From Camelus dromedarius (taxonomy: Eukaryota): a DNA stretch of 64,000 nt. Each line of letters begins with the position of its first letter. Position 1 is the first letter of the stretch. The stretch covers positions 20,586,001 to 20,650,000 of the forward strand of contig NC_087436.1 of NCBI RefSeq assembly GCF_036321535.1, given 5' to 3'. This document shows, in pieces, positions 9,545 through 58,910 of this stretch. The notes under the pieces were generated by a model. That model ran no database searches. It had not been told where the DNA came from and saw nothing but the letters and a program-made list of their open reading frames with translations. Both the position numbers and the translations under genes were made by a program.

Positions 9545-10138
9545 TTGTTTTTTTTATTGAAGTGTAGTTGATTTACAATGTTAATTGTGGTAAAATACAC
9601 ATAACATTACAATTTTCCATTTTACCTTTGTTGTTGTTGTTCATTGTTAATGGAGGTACTGGGGATTAAATCCAGAACCTTGTGCATGCTAAGCATGTGC
9701 TCTGCCACTGAGCTGTACCCACACCCATTCCGTGTTACCATTTTACAGTGTACAGTTCAGTAGGATTAAGTACATTTACATGGTAGTGCAACCATCACCA
9801 TCATCCATCTCCAGAGCTTTTTTCCATCTTGCAAAACTGAGACTCTGTACTGACTAAACAATTCCTCCTCATTCCTCCTTCTCCTCGGCCCTCGGCAACC
9901 ACCATTCTGCTTTCTGTCTTTATGAATTTGACTGCTCTAAGGACATCATATGAGTGGAATCATACAGTATTTGTCCTTTTGTATCTGGCTCATTTCACTT
10001 AGCATCATATCTTCAAGGCTCATCCATGTTGTAACATGTGTCAGAATTTCGTTCCTTTTAAAGACCGAGTAATACATCATTATATAGAAATACGATGTTT
10101 TATTTATCTATTCATCCCCTGATAGACACTTAGGTTTG
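9545..10138 (-). mobile_element. Older L1 (L1MA/MB-like) 3' end, with a young L1 tip and a nested SINE
   Basis: gtacagttcagtaggattaagtacatttaca..ggcaaccaccattctgctttctgtct..gtggaatcatacagtatttgtcc. Confidence 0.85.
9650..9725 (-). mobile_element. tRNA-Ala-derived SINE (short form)
   Basis: tggaggtactggggattaaatccagaaccttgtgcatgctaagcatgtgctctgccactgagctgtaccc. Confidence 0.88.
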
Positions 10139-14571: not shown

Positions 14572-14705
14572 GTTTTTGTGGGGGAAGGAGGAGGGAAGCA
14601 ATTGGGGTTTGTTTGTTTGTTTGTTTTAATGGAGGTACTGGGGGTTGAACCCAGGACCTTGTGCATGCTAAGCATGCACTCTACCACTGAGCTATACCCT
14701 CCTCC
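14572..14705 (-). mobile_element. tRNA-Ala-derived SINE (long form)
   Basis: Near-intact tRNA-Ala(AGC) head. TSD tagact(a/g)ctcaaa(t/c)tg at 14556-14571 and 14706-14721. Confidence 0.93.
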
Positions 14706-17056: not shown

Positions 17057-18453
17057 TTTTTAATGGCCTAATTTTTAAGCCAATTTGACGTTCATCTGCC
17101 AGCTTAAAATGTTAAAGATGTTTATTGAACAAAGATACAGTCTTGATGATATACACCAATAGATAAGTGCTTAAACAATAAGAATTATCTTAAATGTTGA
17201 AAAGGTAAAAAAAAAAAAGTTCTATTTTAAAGAAAATTTATAAGATGCACTCTCCAAATAAATAGAAATTCCTTTACTAAATGATTTTTACATGATGCCC
17301 CTTCATTACTTAGGATAATAGTCATTAATTATTATTCTTCACTGAGGTGGTTAATCATCCGATGCATTTTTAGTTCTTTTTTTTTTAACTCATTTTTAAC
17401 TTTTTAAATTTAAGTTTCTGCCTATCAGTACGCTAAGTTCCATAGGAGATATTAAAGACATACAAGGTCTTGTCCTCATGCAATTTAGAATTTAGCGTAG
17501 GGCACAAGATTAATGTGTGTGTCGGGGAGGGGAGTGCGGATAACAGAAATGATGATGTTAAATGAGGTATGCTAATTCTAAATGCCTGCAGCTCAGGGAA
17601 GAAAGGCAACATGGAAATGTAAATGATCATGAAAATGTAAGACTTAGGCGAGGTTAGGGAGGAGAGATGGGGCGGTTCCAGATGTGAAAACAATGTAAAA
17701 GACACAAAGGAGGAGATTTATAGCTTGATATTCAGTTCTCTACTAGGCATGTCTGCCTAGATGGCTCCAGCTAAAAACCAAACCATCTTTCTGAAACTCT
17801 CTTTCCTTTTGTGTTCCAGAATCAAGCAGATAACAGCAGTCTCCACCCAGTGTCTTAGACTAGAAAAACCAAGGGTGGTCGTAAATTCTCCCCTCTCTCT
17901 TTCCTCTTACTTCAGTTCTGTCATTCTTTCTCTGTTCTGGGGCTGCCCTTTGAGAGCTCCCAGGATGCTCACTGCCAGGGACCTGAGCTCCATATTGTCG
18001 CTGCCCTTGAACCCTCCCCCTCATTTCAAGTCTTCTCTTTCATTAACTCCCTTTGAGAGATTTGTCCTTGAATTTCTAATCTTGGCCTAATGTTTTCAAA
18101 TCAGTGAATTGATTTTGACTGACTATGCAGCTCTGTCAGGCACTTTCCTGAGTTAAAGTTTCTGGCTTAGTTTCTTAGTGTCCCCCCATGGCAGTCCCGC
18201 TCCGCCCAGCCCGACTGGCTGGGACACCAGACTCTGGCTACGGGCCCGGCTCTCCTGATCCCCTCTTGTCCAGTCCAGTCCAGACAGACAGTCCAGTCTG
18301 TCTCCCTCACATTAGGCATTGATGGGCTTTAGCCTGATATGGTAGATTGAGTTCATATGTTCAGCAAATATTTACTCTCCCTTTCCTTGCCCCATGGGTA
18401 GAGAATCCCACTGTGCCCCACGGACACTGAGCTTGGCTCTGCAACTTTGGCCA

Positions 18454-18965
18454 TGTTGGCTGAAATAAAATCACACCATGTGAGAGTTGTGCGTGAAGTT
18501 TTATTTGGGGCAAAATGAGGACTATAGCCCAGGAGACAGCATCCCAGAAAGCTCTGAGAAACTGCTCCAAAGAGGCAGGGGGAGAACTCAGTATTATATA
18601 TGATTTCAGTGAAGGGGGGTATGTGCTTGAGTGAAGCGCATGTTTGGGCAGAGGCTTGCTGCTAGTCACGAGGAGCAGATGTCACCCTTAATGATTTAAT
18701 GCTTTCCTAGATATGAGGAGATGCAAGAATTGGGGTCATAAAATCTTCTTGTGAAAATCTCTAACTATCTGAAGGCCTGTTCAGCTTGTTTTCCCAGAAC
18801 ACAGAGCACCTCATTCCTGACCTCTGTCCTGAACTCCTTTCAGAGTGTGTTGGAGGTCAGTGGCTGCAGCAGCTCATGATTTAATCCAAGCAGAGTTACA
18901 TGGCAAGTACCAACGTGATCCAGTCCTTGTAGAGGCAGATGGCAAGTGCCAGTTTTTAGTTAGCA
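18454..18965 (-). mobile_element. ERV1 solo LTR, MER41-like (resembles artiodactyl MER41_BT), nested in an older MaLR/ERVL LTR (~18400-19335)
   Basis: TG...CA ends with a 4-bp TSD gcca (18450-18453 and 18966-18969). Antisense poly(A)-signal-like ttttatt. MER41-type core ctctgagaaactgctccaaagagg. Confidence 0.8.
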
Positions 18966-39684: not shown

Positions 39685-41780
39685 TCTTTTATTGAGATCT
39701 AATTCACATGCTACAAAACTCACCCATTTAAAGCATACAGTTCAGTGGCTTATAGTATTTTCACAAGGTTGGGCAAACCTCACCACCCTCTTATTTCAGA
39801 ACCTTTTCATTATTCTGAAAAGAATCCCCATAGCCATTAGAGTCATTCACCATTTCTTCTTTCTTCAGCTCCTGGCATCCACCAAACTATCCCGTCTCTA
39901 TGGAATTGCCTGTTCTGGACATTTCTTGTAAACGAAATCATACAATAATGTTGATGAGGATATGGAGTATTGGAACCCTCAAATTTTGCTAGTGGGTGTT
40001 TAAAATGATGCAGCCTTGGTGGAAAATAGTTTGGCACATCCTCAAAATAGTTTGGCTGCCTTAACTGAGTATAAGAATGTTTTCTAGGTTCATCCATTCA
40101 CAGCAAACCTAAGACTTCATAACTTTTATGGCTGAATAATATTCCATTGTATGAAGATACCACATTTATCCTCTTGTTAATCAAAGGGCATTTTGGGTTG
40201 TTTCCATGTTTTTGGCTAATAGTGGTGCTATAAACATTGCTGTACACGTTTTTGTGTGAACATATTTTATATTTTGGGGGCATATATCTAAGAGTAGAAT
40301 TGCTGGATCACATGTTAACTCTTCATTTAACATTTTGAGGACGTGCCGAACTATTTTCCACAGAGGCTGTATCATTTTAAATACCTCACTAGCAATATTT
40401 GAAGGTTTTAGTACTCCACATCCTTATCAACATTTGCTATTATCAATCTTTTCATTATAGTCATCCTAGTGGTTGTAAAGTGGTATCTTCCGGTTTTCAT
40501 TTTCATTTCTCTAATGACTAATGATGTTGAGCATCTCTTCATGTTCCTATTGTACATTTGTATATTTTCTTTGGAGAAATATCTATTCAGATCCTTTATT
40601 CATTTTTAATGGGGTTGTCTTTTTATTGTTTAATTGTAAGAATCCTTTAAGTGTTCTGGATACTGTTTGTTGAAAAGACTATTCTTTCCCTTTTCCCCAT
40701 TGAATGGTCTTGGTACTCTTGTCTAAATCAACTGACCATAGAGTTTATTTCTGGACTCTCAATTCTATACCATTGATCTATATGTCTATCCTATGCAAGC
40801 ACCACACAGTCTTCATTACTGTAGTTCTATAGTAAGCTTGAAATTTGGAAGCATTACTCTTCCAACTTTGTTCTTTTAATGAGATTATTTTGTCTATTTT
40901 GAGTTCCTTGCATTTCCCTATGAGTTTTAGTTCAGCTTGTTAAGTTCATCAGAAGGAAAACCTTCTTTGCATTTAGTTTGCTCCTCTGAAGATGGAAGGA
41001 TAGGTAATTAATCTGAGATCTTTCTTTTTTCTTAATACAATCACTTACAGCTATAAATTTCCCTCTAACAACTATTTTAACTGCATCCATAAGTTCTGGT
41101 ATGTTGTGTTTTAGTTCATTCATCTCAAAGCATTTTCTGATTTCCCTGTGATTTCTTCTTTGAAACATTGTTTTTTTAAAGGATGTTTAATTTTCACATT
41201 TGTGAATTTTTCAAATTTTCTTATTGATTTCTTATTTCATTCTGTTGTGATCAGAGAAAAACATACTTTGTATGATTTCAATCCTTTTAAGTTTATTGAT
41301 ACTTACTTTATGTCCTAAAGTTTGATCTCACCTGGAGAACGTTTCATGTACAATTGGAAAGAATGTGCCTTGTGTACTATTGTTGGGTGGAATGTTCTGT
41401 AGATCTCTGTTAGGTGTAGTTGGCTTATAATACTCTTCAGCTCTTCTATTTACTTGTTGATCTTTTGTCTAGTTGTTCCATTTATTATTGAAAGTGGAGT
41501 TTTGAAGTCCTAAACTGTTGTTGAATTGTCTGTCTCACTTCAGTCTTGCCAGTTGTTGCTTCCTGTATTTTGGTGTGCCATTGTTAGTTGCAGTCATCTT
41601 TTAAATCAGATAGGAGGGAAAAAATGAGTTATAAACACAATTTTATTTGTTCTGTCTTTTATTCTTACCTGTGTTGTTACCTTTACTGGCACTTATTTAT
41701 TCTCATATAGACTTGCATTACTGTCTAGTGTCCTTTAATTTCACTTCAGTATATTCTCTTTAGTATTTCTTTTAGGGCAG
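39685..41780 (-). mobile_element. Old L1 (L1MB-like), 3'UTR into ORF2, containing an internal inverted duplication
   Basis: ORF 40181-40375(-) ..PLWKIVRHVLKMLNEELTCDPAILLL.. and ORF 40932-41168(-) ..LMDAVKIVVRGKFIAVSDCIKKKERSQIN.. are ORF2p-like. Confidence 0.88.
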
Positions 41781-48609: not shown

Positions 48610-48870
48610 CAAGTAAACTTTTCTATTTTGGAATAGTTTTAGAATTATAGAGAAGTTGCTTAGATAGTACAAAGAGTTCCTAAACACTCCTCGCCCTGTT
48701 TCCCTGGCGTTAATGTCTACATTGCCACAGCACATTAGACAAAATGAAGAAATCGGTATTGGCATATTGCTGTGAACTAAACTCCAGGCTGTACAGATTT
48801 CACCTGTTTTTCCACTCATGTTCTTTTTCTGTTTCAGAATCCATTCCAGAATCCCACACGGCATTTAGCC
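48610..48870 (-). mobile_element. L1MC/MD-type 3' end
   Basis: ttttggaatagttttagaattatagagaagttgc..atagtacaaagagttcc..ttctgtttcagaatccattccagaatcccacacggcatttag. Confidence 0.75.
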
Positions 48871-49570
48871 CATTTACAGGCAAACAGAAGGGTCTGGGGG
48901 GAGACTGACTCTGCCTTTAAGAGGTACTGCCTTTTATCTGGATTTTCTCTGCTGTTCTAGAGGTGGTGTTCCACAGTGATTAGCTTGACTGCACTTTTTT
49001 GACCAAGCACTGATTGCCCCCAAGGTGACTTTGGGCTAGTCCTCTTTGATGGTGCCATTTGCAAATCTCTATCCCAGCACTCATCAGGCTGTACTGCAAT
49101 CTCACTCACAGACAACGGGAGTTGTTTAGCATCAAAGCTACCTGTGGGGCTGAGAAGAAATGCTGCACATTCAGGCAATGCAGTTTGTGGCTTTGGTGGC
49201 ACTGAATAAAAGAATCTTGAGCCTTTGCCTATGGCTAGACCCGAAAACTATAAGCTCCATGAAGCGAGGGATTGTTTCTGTTTTGGTTACTACGGGCTTT
49301 CCATGTCCACCTGGTGCCTGAACCAAAGTAGGCGCTTAATAAATATTTGCTGAATGAACAAATGCTTGAAAAGGTGAGAAGCTGCAGGGCTGTAGGAACA
49401 CCAGCAGAGACAGGGAACACCACAGTTGGCAAAGGAAGGGCATTTGGCCCTCTCGGTCCCCACCCAGGCGGCCTTGGCAGTGAGGAGGAAGGAATCCTTC
49501 CCAGTGGGGGGCAGCTCCGAGTTCTTCAGCTGTTCTGGGTTGGAAGGTTCACTTCACTACATCACACCTG

Positions 49571-50012
49571 GCTGTATTTCAAAGATTAATGAACAGCGTC
49601 TTGTCAGGTTTAATATATTGCACTTGGGGAGTTTACTTTGACGATGTAATCATAAATTCCCTGAGCTGCGAATTACACCTTAAGGACTTAGATGAAGTTC
49701 TAGTGAGAACCAAAGAAACAGGAATCACCGTAAAATGTAAAAAGTGCCAGTTTTGAGAGAAAACTGTAAATTTTCTAGGACATTAGGTTTCAAAAGAAGG
49801 ATTACACACAGACTAAACAAAGTAGAAGTCATAAAAATTTAAAGACACCACAAAACATAACAAAAATAAGATCGTTTTTAGTTATGACAGAATTCTAAAA
49901 GGAAACTTACACCAAATTATGCCACCCAAGCAGAGCCATTAATTAACCTAATGAGAAAATATGTTCCATTTCCATGGCCAAAGCATGTCAGGAAGGCTTT
50001 GACATTTTAAAA
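49571..50012 (+). mobile_element. Fossil Ty3/Gypsy pol fragment (RT core plus connection), non-coding
   Basis: Manual translation from 49571: AVFQRLMNSVLSGLIYCTWGVYFDDVIINSLSCELHLKDLDEVLVRTKETGITVKCKKCQF*EKTVNFLGH*VSKEG. After frameshifts: KVEVIK / KTPQNITKIRSFLVMTEF* / PNYATQAEPLINLMRKYVPFPW / ACQEGFDILK. YFDD is at 49634-49645. Confidence 0.9.
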
Positions 50013-51694
50013 TAGGAAAGAAAAAAGAAAGACAGAAAGAGAGGGAAAAAAAGAGGAAAAGAAAGGGAGGCAATTGCACTATTCTAAAAAGTTTTAAATA
50101 CTCACTTATCAGTTCAGGAAATCTGAGGTATTTTGATAATATCCTCAATGAGCCCTTTGGGAAATTTCTGCAATTGTTGTGTAAATAAAATGTGGATTAC
50201 AAAAACAGTATTGGCAAAAGAAGCTGGAGTCGAGGGAACAATCAGGAAAGTACGGATCAATGTCTTAAGTCACTGATGTTTGGGCAGAAGTTCAGGAGAT
50301 GAACTTGAGCCATGCAGAGAGATAAGGCAAGGACCTCCCTTCAACCCTCTTCCCCCAAACCTACACGGACCCAAAGAAGGACTCAAGCAAAGCATGGAGG
50401 TAAAAAAAAAATGTCTCCTGAAATAAAACAGTGACAACAAACATTCTCAAAGCCAACCCCCCTTTCTGTTTCTTAGTAACTCTACTGGTTCTATGATTAA
50501 TGTTGCCCACATTACAGCCAAAGTTGTTTTCTGTCCGGATTGCCGTATTTCACCCGCCCTCTTCCTGAGCCCCTTCAATGCCCCAAATCTCTCCACCCGC
50601 GCTCAGCCTTGAGCCCAGTTACAAGCTCAGAGTGCGATCTGGGTAATTCACTGACGCTTTTTTTTCCTGCCTGAGAAATGGTGATAATAATATTTCCCAT
50701 GTATTTCGCAGAAGCTGTTCTAAGGCTTAGTGAGGTCGTGTGGGTAGAGCTTTTGAGGTCTTCAGATGAAAAGTGCTAAAGGAGGCCAACATATTATTAG
50801 TCAGCATTATTCAGTTGCTGCTATGCTAGTCTCGGACCAGCATAGTTACGGTTGAGAAGGTATTAGGCAGGGGTTTATGTATTTCTCCCCAAGATTACTC
50901 TTAAAACTGAAATTGCAAAGCAGTCCCAGTTGTGAAAGTTGAAACCACAGTAAATAACGAAGGCTCTAAGCCTGATTCCCAGGCGTTCCGGGGGGTGTTA
51001 CGTGGTCTGGACGGGCTCCAGGTTCTACCTGCTCCAGTGACCTGGGGAGGGATCTGCTCTTTTGCCCTCTCAGAGGTGATGGACAGCTAACATAGTCCTG
51101 GCAGCCCTGGGAATTTTGCCTCCAGGTCTGAGGTCAGAGCTGTTTTTCCAGCCTGTGCTGGGAGGGAAGTCTAATTCTCACTGGCCTGTTGATCCTGCCA
51201 ATCATTTCAGGAGGGCCTCCAATTGGCTTACTCCATTTGAGCAGAGGAAATGACTCTTGAGTCCACCCTTTTTCAGCCTGAGATAGCAACCAGTTATCTG
51301 TCTGCCTCCCTTCATGGATAACCACAAGGCCACTGGGAGTGTTCAAAGACGTGCCTGGACTTCAGGAACTCCGATGCCCCTTGGCCTGGTGTCCATACCA
51401 GGGTTCGAAGAGCCTGGCTTTCAGGATTTTGGACTTGTCCAAAGATCTTATTATTGAACCAGAGGACCTTTAAATGAAGATTGAAGTGATTCTTTTTTAC
51501 ATGTGAAAAAGTAACCAAGGATTTTTATCTGGCAGTTGCAACTTGGTGATGAGAGTGAAACATTTTTTAAATAAATTTAAACTCTAAACCCTAGATTTGA
51601 GTTCCACACATTAAATTTATTGATTCTAAAGTTGTTGATTATTTGATCCAAACTTGAAGACCGTGGTTAAAATTCTTTAGTTCACCTGAGTGAA

Positions 51695-53110: not shown

Positions 53111-53571
53111 TTTTTTTTAAAAACCAGACTCCACAAACCTCAGAAATCAGGGCAGATTTATTGAAGGCCTTGGGCACAATAGACTTCACCCAGAAGAGCC
53201 CATCAAGATATCCATTTCAGGACACAGTTGGGAGATTACAATTTACTAAATGTGTTGATTTGGCTACTAAATGAAACATTTGTTGTGTCTTTCATGGCTG
53301 TTCATTGTTCTAGCAAGTCATTCATTCAGCAGGTATGTGCTCAGTGGTAGGGTCTTGGGGAAATACAAAAATGAAGCTCCTTGTGGGGGAAATAAATATG
53401 GAGATAAAAAAACTAGAGTGCAAGGTTGAGAGACTTAGGACTAGAAGTCTCAGTCTCAGAAAATCCTGTAGAGGAGAAGGTGTGGATCTCTGAAATGAAA
53501 GAGATGTGGGTCATGTAATATGAGCGGAAACTGGAGACTGGGGTTGTGGATTACTGTCCTTTTAAAAGAAA

Positions 53572-54181
53572 TTTTTTTATATTAAAGTATAGTTGATTTA
53601 CAATGTTGTGTTAGTTTCTGGTTCATAGCATAGTGATTCAGTTATACATATATATATATTCTTTTTCTTTATAGATTATTACAAGATATTGAATATATTT
53701 CCCTGTGCTATACAGTAGGACCTTGTTGTTTTTCTATTTCATATATAATAGTTTGTAGCTGCTAATCCCAAACTGCTAATTTGTCCTTCTGCCCCTTTCC
53801 CTTTTGGTAACCATAAGTTTGTTTTCTGTCTGTGAGTCTGTTTCTGTTTTGTAAATAAATTCTTGATCTAGCTATTCCACTCCTGGGCATATATCCAGAG
53901 AAAACTCTAACTGGGAAAGATACATGCACCCAAATGTTCATAGCAGCACTATTCACAGTAGCCATGCAAGCAACCTAAATGTCCATCAACAGGTGATTGG
54001 ATAAAGAAGATGTGGTGTGTATATACAAGGGAATACTACTAAGTCATAAAGAGAATGGAATGATACCATTTGCAGCAACATGGATGGACCTAGAGATGAT
54101 CACACTAAGTGAAGTCAGTCATAGAAAGATAAATATCATATGGTATCACTTATATGTGGAATCTCAAAAATGATACAGATG
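53572..54181 (-). mobile_element. 5'-inverted (twin-primed) L1
   Basis: Antisense 3' end at 53572-53862, joined to a sense segment at 53863-54181 (gatctagctattccactcctggg..tgatacagatg). Confidence 0.9.
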
Positions 54182-55240
54182 TACTGCCTCTTGATGTCAC
54201 TTGATTTTGGTTTCCAATGGATGCAGAAGCCTGTTATTTGGATTTAATAATCATACATGAGGGGAGTTGTAGCTTGTGGAGGGAGAGCCTTGGAGCCAAG
54301 GTAGCTGGAGTAATGGGTATGGACTGGTATTAGCCAGTGGCTGTAAGTCACCCAAGGGTTTTCCAACACACTTAAAATAAAACCCAAACTCCTCATAAGT
54401 GCCTACAATACCTTGCATAACTGTCTCCTGCCTACATCTCCATCCTCGTTCTTCACCTTGCTTCCAATATTCCAGCCCATCTGGCCTCCATGACCAGTCC
54501 TTACCCATCGTCTTCAGGTCTTGGTTTTTTCTTTTATCTGGGATGCCCTTTTCCAGACTGTACACATCCTTTTCTTGAGATGGGGTTTCAGTGGCCTCCC
54601 TGTTTAAACTAGCCCTCATTCTTGGTTACTCTCTGTGCCCCAACCTGTTCATTTCCTTCTTAACTGTTCTGTTCAACAGCTATGATGCAAGAAATTACTC
54701 CAAAACTTAGCAGTTTATGGCAAAAGAAGTCATTTTATTATATATCTAAGTTTCTTTGGGACAAGAATTGAGGAGAGGCTTGGCTGGGTGTCTTCTTCTC
54801 GGAGGCTGTCATGCAATTGCGGTCAGGAGGTGACTGGAGCTGCCACAGAAGGCCTGGCTAGACATCACTCCCATTTGTATAGTTTCATGGGCTCTCCATG
54901 TAGGCTAGTTTTAGCTTTTTTCACAGCATAGTGGCCTCCAACTTCTTACATGATGGCTGGAAATTCGATTTCCATTGAAAACCAAGATCAAGTGATCTCA
55001 AGGTTCTGCTCATACTGCCTCGGCCCACAGCTCCTTTATCTCAGATGTTCATGCCCTCTTCTCTGTGGGGTTTCCTGGTGACTAAGACTCCTGGTCTTGA
55101 GCTGTCTCAACCTTGCACTCTAGTTTTTTGTCTTCACATTTATTTTGAAGGCTTCAACAGCTAAGTGTTCCTATAGCAGAGTGGAAGTTGCATAACATTT
55201 TCTGACACAGTGACACTGCAAATCACTCAGCATCCTTCCT

Positions 55241-55395: not shown

Positions 55396-55450
55396 TTCTT
55401 TCCTTCTTTCCTTCTTTCTCTCTCTTTCCTTCCATCCTTCCTTCCTTCAT
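55241..55450 (+). repeat. (TTTC)n/(TTCC)n microsatellite, the expanded tail of the adjacent SINE
   Basis: Tandem repeat directly visible, abutting the SINE 3' end. Confidence 0.95.
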
Positions 55451-55533
55451 TTTTTAAATGGAGGTGCTGGGGATTGAATCCAAGACCTCGTGCATGCTAA
55501 GCATGTGCACTACCACTGAGCTATACCCTCCTC
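55451..55533 (-). mobile_element. tRNA-Ala-derived SINE (short form)
   Basis: tggaggtgctggggattgaatccaagacctcgtgcatgctaagcatgtgcactaccactgagctataccctcc. TSD catcctt(c/t)ct. Confidence 0.92.
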
Positions 55534-58806: not shown

Positions 58807-58910
58807 TTTTTTTTTTTTTTTTTTTTTTTTTAGTGGAGGTGCTGGGGATTGAACCCAGGACCTCATGTGTGCTAAGCCCATGGTCTACCACTGAGCTATT
58901 ACCCTCCCCA
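58807..58910 (-). mobile_element. tRNA-Ala-derived SINE (short form, pure poly-A tail)
   Basis: A run of about 26 T, then gtggaggtgctggggattgaacccaggacctc..actgagcta. Flanking repeat ttccaat. Confidence 0.92.

Follow-up and report, generated by a model that had tools for sequence, protein, structure and literature searches.

At positions 49571-50012 of the window, by which we mean the whole 64-kb stretch of DNA analysed, the forward strand carries a sequence which, judging from its similarity to known elements, is almost certainly a Ty3/Gypsy reverse transcriptase (RT). A frameshift-aware alignment followed it over 148 profile positions with 172 bits, and the parts recognised in and around it are collected in Table 1. 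The window as a whole is mammalian non-coding DNA with a G+C content of 32-45%, and its repeats are, as we take them, three tRNA-like SINE heads and L1-like 3' ends. The tRNA-like matches were observed on the reverse strand at 9651-9722, 14630-14701, 55459-55530 and 58833-58906; the pair at 55450 and 58825 is 80% alike and each member follows a T run, so that tRNA-derived SINE heads fit better than tRNA genes. Two inverted repeats, one at 40000-40380 (arms of 49 bases, 90%, separated by 283 bases) and the other at 53407-55129 (perfect 25-base arms, 1,673 bases apart), are possibly repeat remnants.

Table 1. Features of the Gypsy-derived fragment and its upstream flank (ORF, open reading frame)
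Feature	Position	Strand	Observation
Host flank, orthology anchor and rate control	49230..49540	.	Matched alone by 11 ORFs
5' edge of relic, ten codons	49541..49570	+	Common to the look-alike loci, without Gypsy profile match
Gypsy RT, C-terminal polymerase domain	49571..49813	+	123.3 bits against 22.5 best elsewhere
Predicted hairpin, long, across the YxDD codons	49603..49688	+	-27.3 kcal/mol, z -4.4 (stretch picked after the hairpin was seen)
YxDD	49634-49645	+	Within the polymerase part
Candidate functional core, among the most conserved	49637..49676	+	Differing residues 11/94 and 13/171, against 32/124 just upstream
RT thumb start, two pieces	49816..49895	+	28.1 bits against 17.8 best elsewhere, 424 blocks
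RT thumb/connection	49900..50012	+	49900-49977: 31.2 bits against 15.5 elsewhere
Purine-rich interruption, 86 bases	50013..50098	.	Below-zero profile scores in every register just past 50012
Likely 14-codon continuation towards RNase H	50099..50140	+	Next profile positions after the insert

Identity and extent of the fossil

The initial annotation of this DNA had regarded the fragment as Ty3/Gypsy RT, and not as L1 or ERV, and had proposed a Pfam RVT_1 search. With a 94-residue reading of 49541-49822 as the query (X at stops), RVT_1, and not RVT_2, was matched: the alignment covers positions 128-204 of the 205 in the profile and scores 47.2 bits (E 2.8e-12), where the cut-off is 29.6. Among PDB entries, Ty3 RT (4ol8) ranked first with E 1.7e-8, followed by an 'enzymatic polyprotein' (8r0s, 2.3e-5), presumably that of a caulimovirus, and by foamy-virus-type Pol at 4e-5 and weaker, beyond which the PDB gave no match at E <= 1. 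An L1 or ERV origin is ruled out by the Pfam and PDB results, in agreement with that annotation, and the RT stands nearer to Gypsy than to the RTs of retroviruses, caulimoviruses, Copia or LINEs.

A homologue search over 1.84 billion representatives gave 20,644 matches, of which the best 150 were used, and 142 of these 150 are at most 53% identical to the fossil. The set of relatives comprised 144 sequences (142 and two from another search), and the profile was built from the 90 having full context. Among the top relatives scanned, the RT is followed by Gypsy-type RNase H domains in 11/12 and by integrase in 10/12. Over 148 residues, with X at the breaks, the fossil displays 41-47% identity to 19 of the best 20 relatives and 39.9% to the remaining one, and 57/144 relatives align gap-free along the whole length. 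A quick tree gave no lineage placement within Gypsy, the terminal branch of the fossil being 1.16 against a median of 0.54. At its C-terminal end, a tilapia protein annotated as butyrophilin-like (P0074, XP_039457446.1) has a stretch of Gypsy RT that shares about 50% identity with the fossil; here the gene model has likely been extended into a retroelement. Elsewhere in the window, 18368-18577 on the reverse strand weakly matched one of the 144 relatives (E 7e-4, 26%) and did not match the profile, which is probably due to chance.

The reading frame is open from 49571 up to the stop at 49754, giving the 61 codons first described, and the disablements in the window consist of two stops (49754-49756 and 49784-49786) and four one-base frameshifts near 49814, 49834, 49896 and 49978. 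All the peptides quoted in the initial annotation occur at their places, with the correction that the window reads RSFLV and PNYA where the motifs had been given as RSFLG and PNFA; the small frameshifts that it mentioned are present, and the piece between the shifts at 49814 and 49834 (49816-49833) was missing from it. The part past the first frameshift, which lay almost wholly outside the query of the homologue search, scored 56.7 bits with the 90-relative profile, the best value elsewhere in 424 window blocks being 18.8. Thumb and connection pieces were placed at 49848-49880, 49912-49977 and 49983-50012, and the final 12 profile positions alone recorded 13.4 bits against 13.1 elsewhere. Upstream extension of the RT match beyond 49571 was tried and rejected, as the profile scores were negative in each of 11 registers; the ten codons at 49541-49570 display 60-100% identity in the 16 ORFs covering them.

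The purine-rich stretch just past the thumb/connection is, from its sequence, probably a later insertion. It is bracketed by near-direct 9-10 base repeats at 50005-50014 and 50092-50100, which are possibly the target-site duplication of that insertion. The continuation behind it, which had been suggested as possible at about 50093-50137, ranks second of 127,906 positions for profile positions 352-367 (2 of 328 blocks) and fifth for 354-367; since this was one of eight blocks tested, we consider 50099-50140 a likely, and not a proven, continuation of the RT. The RNase H blocks of the profile had no significant match in the window, where the RNase H catalytic motif was not found either, and no homologous ORF shared three words with 50093-50302. 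Gag, protease, integrase, LTRs and a second Gypsy copy were likewise not found within the 64-kb window, and the sole direct repeat in the 12 kb flanks is an L1-like 3' end of 84 bases. As there are no flanking LTRs, which had also been the first impression, the locus is filed as a Gypsy-derived fragment and not as a complete element.

Orthologous loci and coding status

Protein searches returned 19 machine-called ORFs that look like the fossil, with 53-94% identity to it. For 16 of them the upstream part was searched alone against the whole window, the other three beginning inside the RT. The unique upstream flank was matched alone by 11 of the 16 (E <= 1.2e-10), and these 11 ORFs are therefore regarded as orthologues of this locus. 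As for the other five, P0018 gave a match that falls in part within the RT, the short length of P0019 and P0020 leaves them unconfirmed, and for P0070 and P0079 10 and 90 of 210 background blocks, respectively, scored as well, so that these two failed. The first portion of the flank, 49230-49365, has the look of what we assume to be an L2 3' end.

We infer that the genomes carrying the orthologues are those of other mammals, and the insertion is older than the split of the sampled genomes. The earlier impression of an old insertion that has remained unusually legible is supported. Recent horizontal transfer was also considered, and is rejected because the orthologues share flanks. Metagenome DNA scans for orthologues yielded 0/337 candidates in one case and 7/219 in another, all seven being distant Gypsy elements at 38-49%, and a viral scan for DNA orthologues yielded 1/19, which was only a 17-residue match. 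Six RNA runs (lung, gut and unlabelled metagenomes) contained 5-9% of the words of 48800-50800, a figure from unaligned reads that is not evidence on expression.

Eight ORFs were not confirmed through the flank, and P0070 and P0079, having failed the test, could be paralogues, as would be expected if the fossil were a copy of a low-copy mammalian Gypsy family of the MamGyp-int or X_LR type in Repbase or Dfam. Gypsy internal relics of this kind, MamGyp-int and X1-X4_LR, are recorded for human in Repbase (PMC5753468), and such an identity would be compatible with the explanation we favour while making the locus less novel. However, the unconfirmed ORFs have the stops or the shifted frames of the window, which is simpler under orthology, no second copy occurs in the window, and all the other matches among the best 150 of 20,644 are at most 53% identical. 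We therefore consider membership of such a family unlikely.

The initial annotation had proposed looking for shared stops, and they were detected: 7/19 ORFs end exactly at the second stop of the window and 6/19 at the first. In-frame passage of the stop at 49784 was observed in none of the 19 ORFs, and none has the intact reading frame of a domesticated gene. P0017, P0019 and P0022 continue across 49787-49853 in the shifted frames of the window (17/17, 19/20 and 16/17 identical, respectively), which indicates that these loci have the first two frameshifts in common with it. Inside the open 61 codons (49571-49753), additional frameshifts occur in 7/19 ORFs, including the flank-confirmed P0016 and P0021, and P0006 has a 5-codon deletion. 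Five ORFs have sufficient out-of-frame overlap, and in them 200/250 residues are identical in frame against 91/117 out of frame; the variation among the ORFs does not track how conserved the Gypsy columns are (rho -0.18, p 0.17).

A domesticated exon, in which the open 61 codons are translated, now or until recently, in a host protein as in the RT-bearing RTL1, would agree with the YxDD motif being kept in 14/19 ORFs, with the absence of any in-frame indel from 148 codons compared with 57 intact relatives, and with the little decay since coding was lost. It is contradicted by the Asp pair being changed in 3/19 ORFs and by there being no longer, intact homologue among the best 150 of 20,644 matches. 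Moreover, the lack of read-through of the second stop, the frameshifts in the open part and the frame-independent identity mean that this is not a maintained exon, so we hold the exon reading to be highly improbable. By the same sequence comparison, the fossil is very probably non-coding in the sampled mammals, and the suggestion of a domesticated exon kept as a protein there is not supported, given the shared stops and frameshifts, the further frameshifts and the frame-independent conservation. It is also improbable that the fossil is the remnant of a domesticated Gypsy RT gene that was coding in early mammals or amniotes, died before the sampled split and then became a non-coding element. 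On that reading marsupials, monotremes or reptiles might still carry an orthologue that is intact, and in one branch a small RNA may also be yielded by a hairpin over the former active-site codons.

Rate of change and the predicted hairpin

Rates were obtained from the translations of machine-called ORFs and not from DNA alignments, with 49571-49753 as the RT span and 49230-49540, a single upstream flank of about 300 bases, as the control. Residue identity was higher in the RT than in the flank in all 11 flank-confirmed orthologues, as in 57/61 against 74/100 (without indels) or 57/61 against 38/56; the difference has a Fisher p < 0.05 in 7/11 and a simulated P < 0.05 in 10/11. The RT/flank ratio of substitution rates ranges from 0.15 to 0.73 across the 11 and is nearly unchanged under four CpG/G+C models. 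A hand calculation gives a median of 0.30, which rises to 0.39 if four near-identical ORFs, forming one 90% cluster, are counted once. P0070 and P0079 were part of the first 13-ORF rate tables and were left out of the 11 after failing the flank test. A slower RT was also noticed in 20/22 comparisons of one orthologue with another (pairs that are non-independent, four of them involving P0070 or P0079), the opposite direction being displayed by P0005-P0021 and P0006-P0013. P0021 shows little or no slowing (29/36 against 57/74, p 0.44).

Within the flank there is a gradient, in which the near flank at 49365-49540 is intermediate and the L2-like part is fastest. Since 49365-49570 is slower than the L2-like part, the constrained element may extend slightly past the TE-derived part into this G+C-rich stretch. 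Inside the RT, conservation similar to that of the candidate core in Table 1 was found at 49736-49781, where 7/82 and 3/63 residues of the look-alike ORFs differ from the window.

The apparent conservation would have another origin if this were an ordinary dead Gypsy fragment evolving neutrally, seen through RT-based selection of the ORFs and against a faster, G+C-rich flank. The ORFs were indeed found through the RT part, which favours RT identity and is partly offset by matches down to 53%; the G+C content is 45-59% in the flank against 36% in the RT part; several lineages tolerate frameshifts and the 5-codon deletion, and in P0021 there is no slowing. Nevertheless, the median ratio stays at 0.37-0.39 (13 ORFs) under four mutation models, close orthologues would be found even at 70-75% identity, and the slowing holds between orthologues without the window being involved. 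The fossil also scores 47.6 bits with an independent Pfam model, against 53.8-68.2 in seven intact relatives, which on a decay-simulation scale corresponds to about 0.1 substitutions per site, a rough value with 3/7 loci in register and a profile biased towards the fossil. A neutral relic is thus a rather unlikely account, and the sequences point to real purifying selection on the fragment as probable. The fossil combines the features of an exapted TE, namely an orthologous position, a rate well below neutral (from translations and one flank) and no protein-coding constraint, and the translated rate of about 0.3-0.4 of the flank favours the exapted cis-element that the initial annotation had put forward.

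The predicted hairpin over the YxDD codons has about 29 stem pairs and a loop spanning the active-site codons of the RT. If the hairpin were released by processing of a host intron or a non-coding transcript, as a structured RNA or one like a microRNA, selection on RNA could explain the conservation, and this would fit the stem and its z score, a 3' arm that is among the most conserved stretches (13/171 residues differ) and the absence of the hairpin from seven intact relatives (z -1.2 to 0.9). The 5' arm, which starts like what we take to be the miR-92-family seed, is on the contrary the most variable stretch, with 32/124 residues differing, 3/17 ORFs identical and most of it deleted in P0006, and the conserved region reaches well past the hairpin. 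Folding to -27 or lower was also recorded in 9/1,699 GC-matched windows, and the 320-base region folds with a z of only -1.36. Rfam provided no family for the hairpin, giving only tRNA-like matches and a chance match at E 4.3, and the letters of the hairpin are absent from the main text of the searched literature. We judge a selected RNA to be very unlikely and the hairpin to be probably incidental.

Proposed explanation and comparison with known systems

The explanation we lean towards is that this Gypsy relic persists as a conserved element with a non-coding, probably cis-regulatory, function, which is inferred. A Ty3/Gypsy LTR retrotransposon inserted before the sampled mammals split, as the orthologous flanks show, and in this window it has lost all but about 0.5 kb of pol. 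It was dead as a protein gene already in the common ancestor of the sampled mammals, as the shared stops and frameshifts show. By the translations of the orthologues, the RT-derived DNA then changed at about one third of the flank rate, whatever the frame. Selection would act on the DNA itself, as an enhancer or silencer, with transcription factors on the A+T-rich core at about 49637-49790. Given selection, an enhancer-type mechanism is likely by analogy, and the transcription-factor sites would most likely lie within 49637-49676 and 49736-49781, where conservation is highest. One candidate homeobox-type 8-mer occurs three times in the window against 5.4 expected, and being not enriched it gives no support.

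Gypsy protein fossils that are conserved in mammals have already been described as a class (PMC9004415, PMC3428314). In the first of these studies, human is credited with 83 pre-amniote Gypsy protein fossils and four pre-tetrapod ones, 80 of the 83 being missed by RepeatMasker, and conservation of Gypsy fossils is read as exaptation (Frith 2022, PMC9004415). The present locus is possibly already catalogued in that set through its human orthologue. A literature search without coordinates, which could not have recognised the locus, found no paper on it. The fossil represents a clean, long case in which the interior of a retroelement polymerase, and not an LTR, is apparently preserved as non-coding DNA. 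The Gypsy lineage that it records is as distant from the listed intact elements as those are from each other, or more so, and the locus offers an enhancer candidate open to testing and a further marker of how diverse Gypsy elements were in the ancestors of mammals. The general picture is unchanged, as dozens to thousands of comparable elements have been catalogued.

With the fish and invertebrate Ty3/Gypsy pol sequences (P0088, P0090, P0103, tilapia XP_039457446.1 and rohu KAI2647570.1), the fossil shares a collinear RT palm, thumb and connection; the relatives display the order RT-RNase H-integrase, whereas the fossil retains only the second half of the RT. Like MamGyp-int and X1-X4_LR, the Gypsy internal relics in Repbase, it is Gypsy internal sequence in a mammalian genome, but those are multi-copy consensus families and here one locus is evidenced (PMC5753468). 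RTL1, PEG10 and PNMA resemble it in their Gypsy origin, lack of LTRs and purifying selection. However, domesticated Metaviridae capsid genes keep open frames and are capsid-centred, while the fossil has shared disablements, frame-independent conservation and no capsid part (PMC11011659).

Close in kind are the fossils of Frith, which are likewise single-locus, frameshifted pieces of Gypsy protein that are non-coding, slow-evolving and free of LTRs. Compared with the four Gypsy fossils tabled there (159-328 bases), the present one is longer, at 442 bases, and its age is shown within mammals only (PMC9004415). Lowe and Haussler (2012) count 1,815 conserved non-exonic elements of Gypsy origin and give 0.30 of the neutral rate as the average for exapted elements (PMC3428314). 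The fossil is like these in its TE origin, which for them includes Gypsy, and in a rate near 0.30 of neutral, and differs in length, as those elements average 25 bases and at least 200-290 bases appear to be slowed here.
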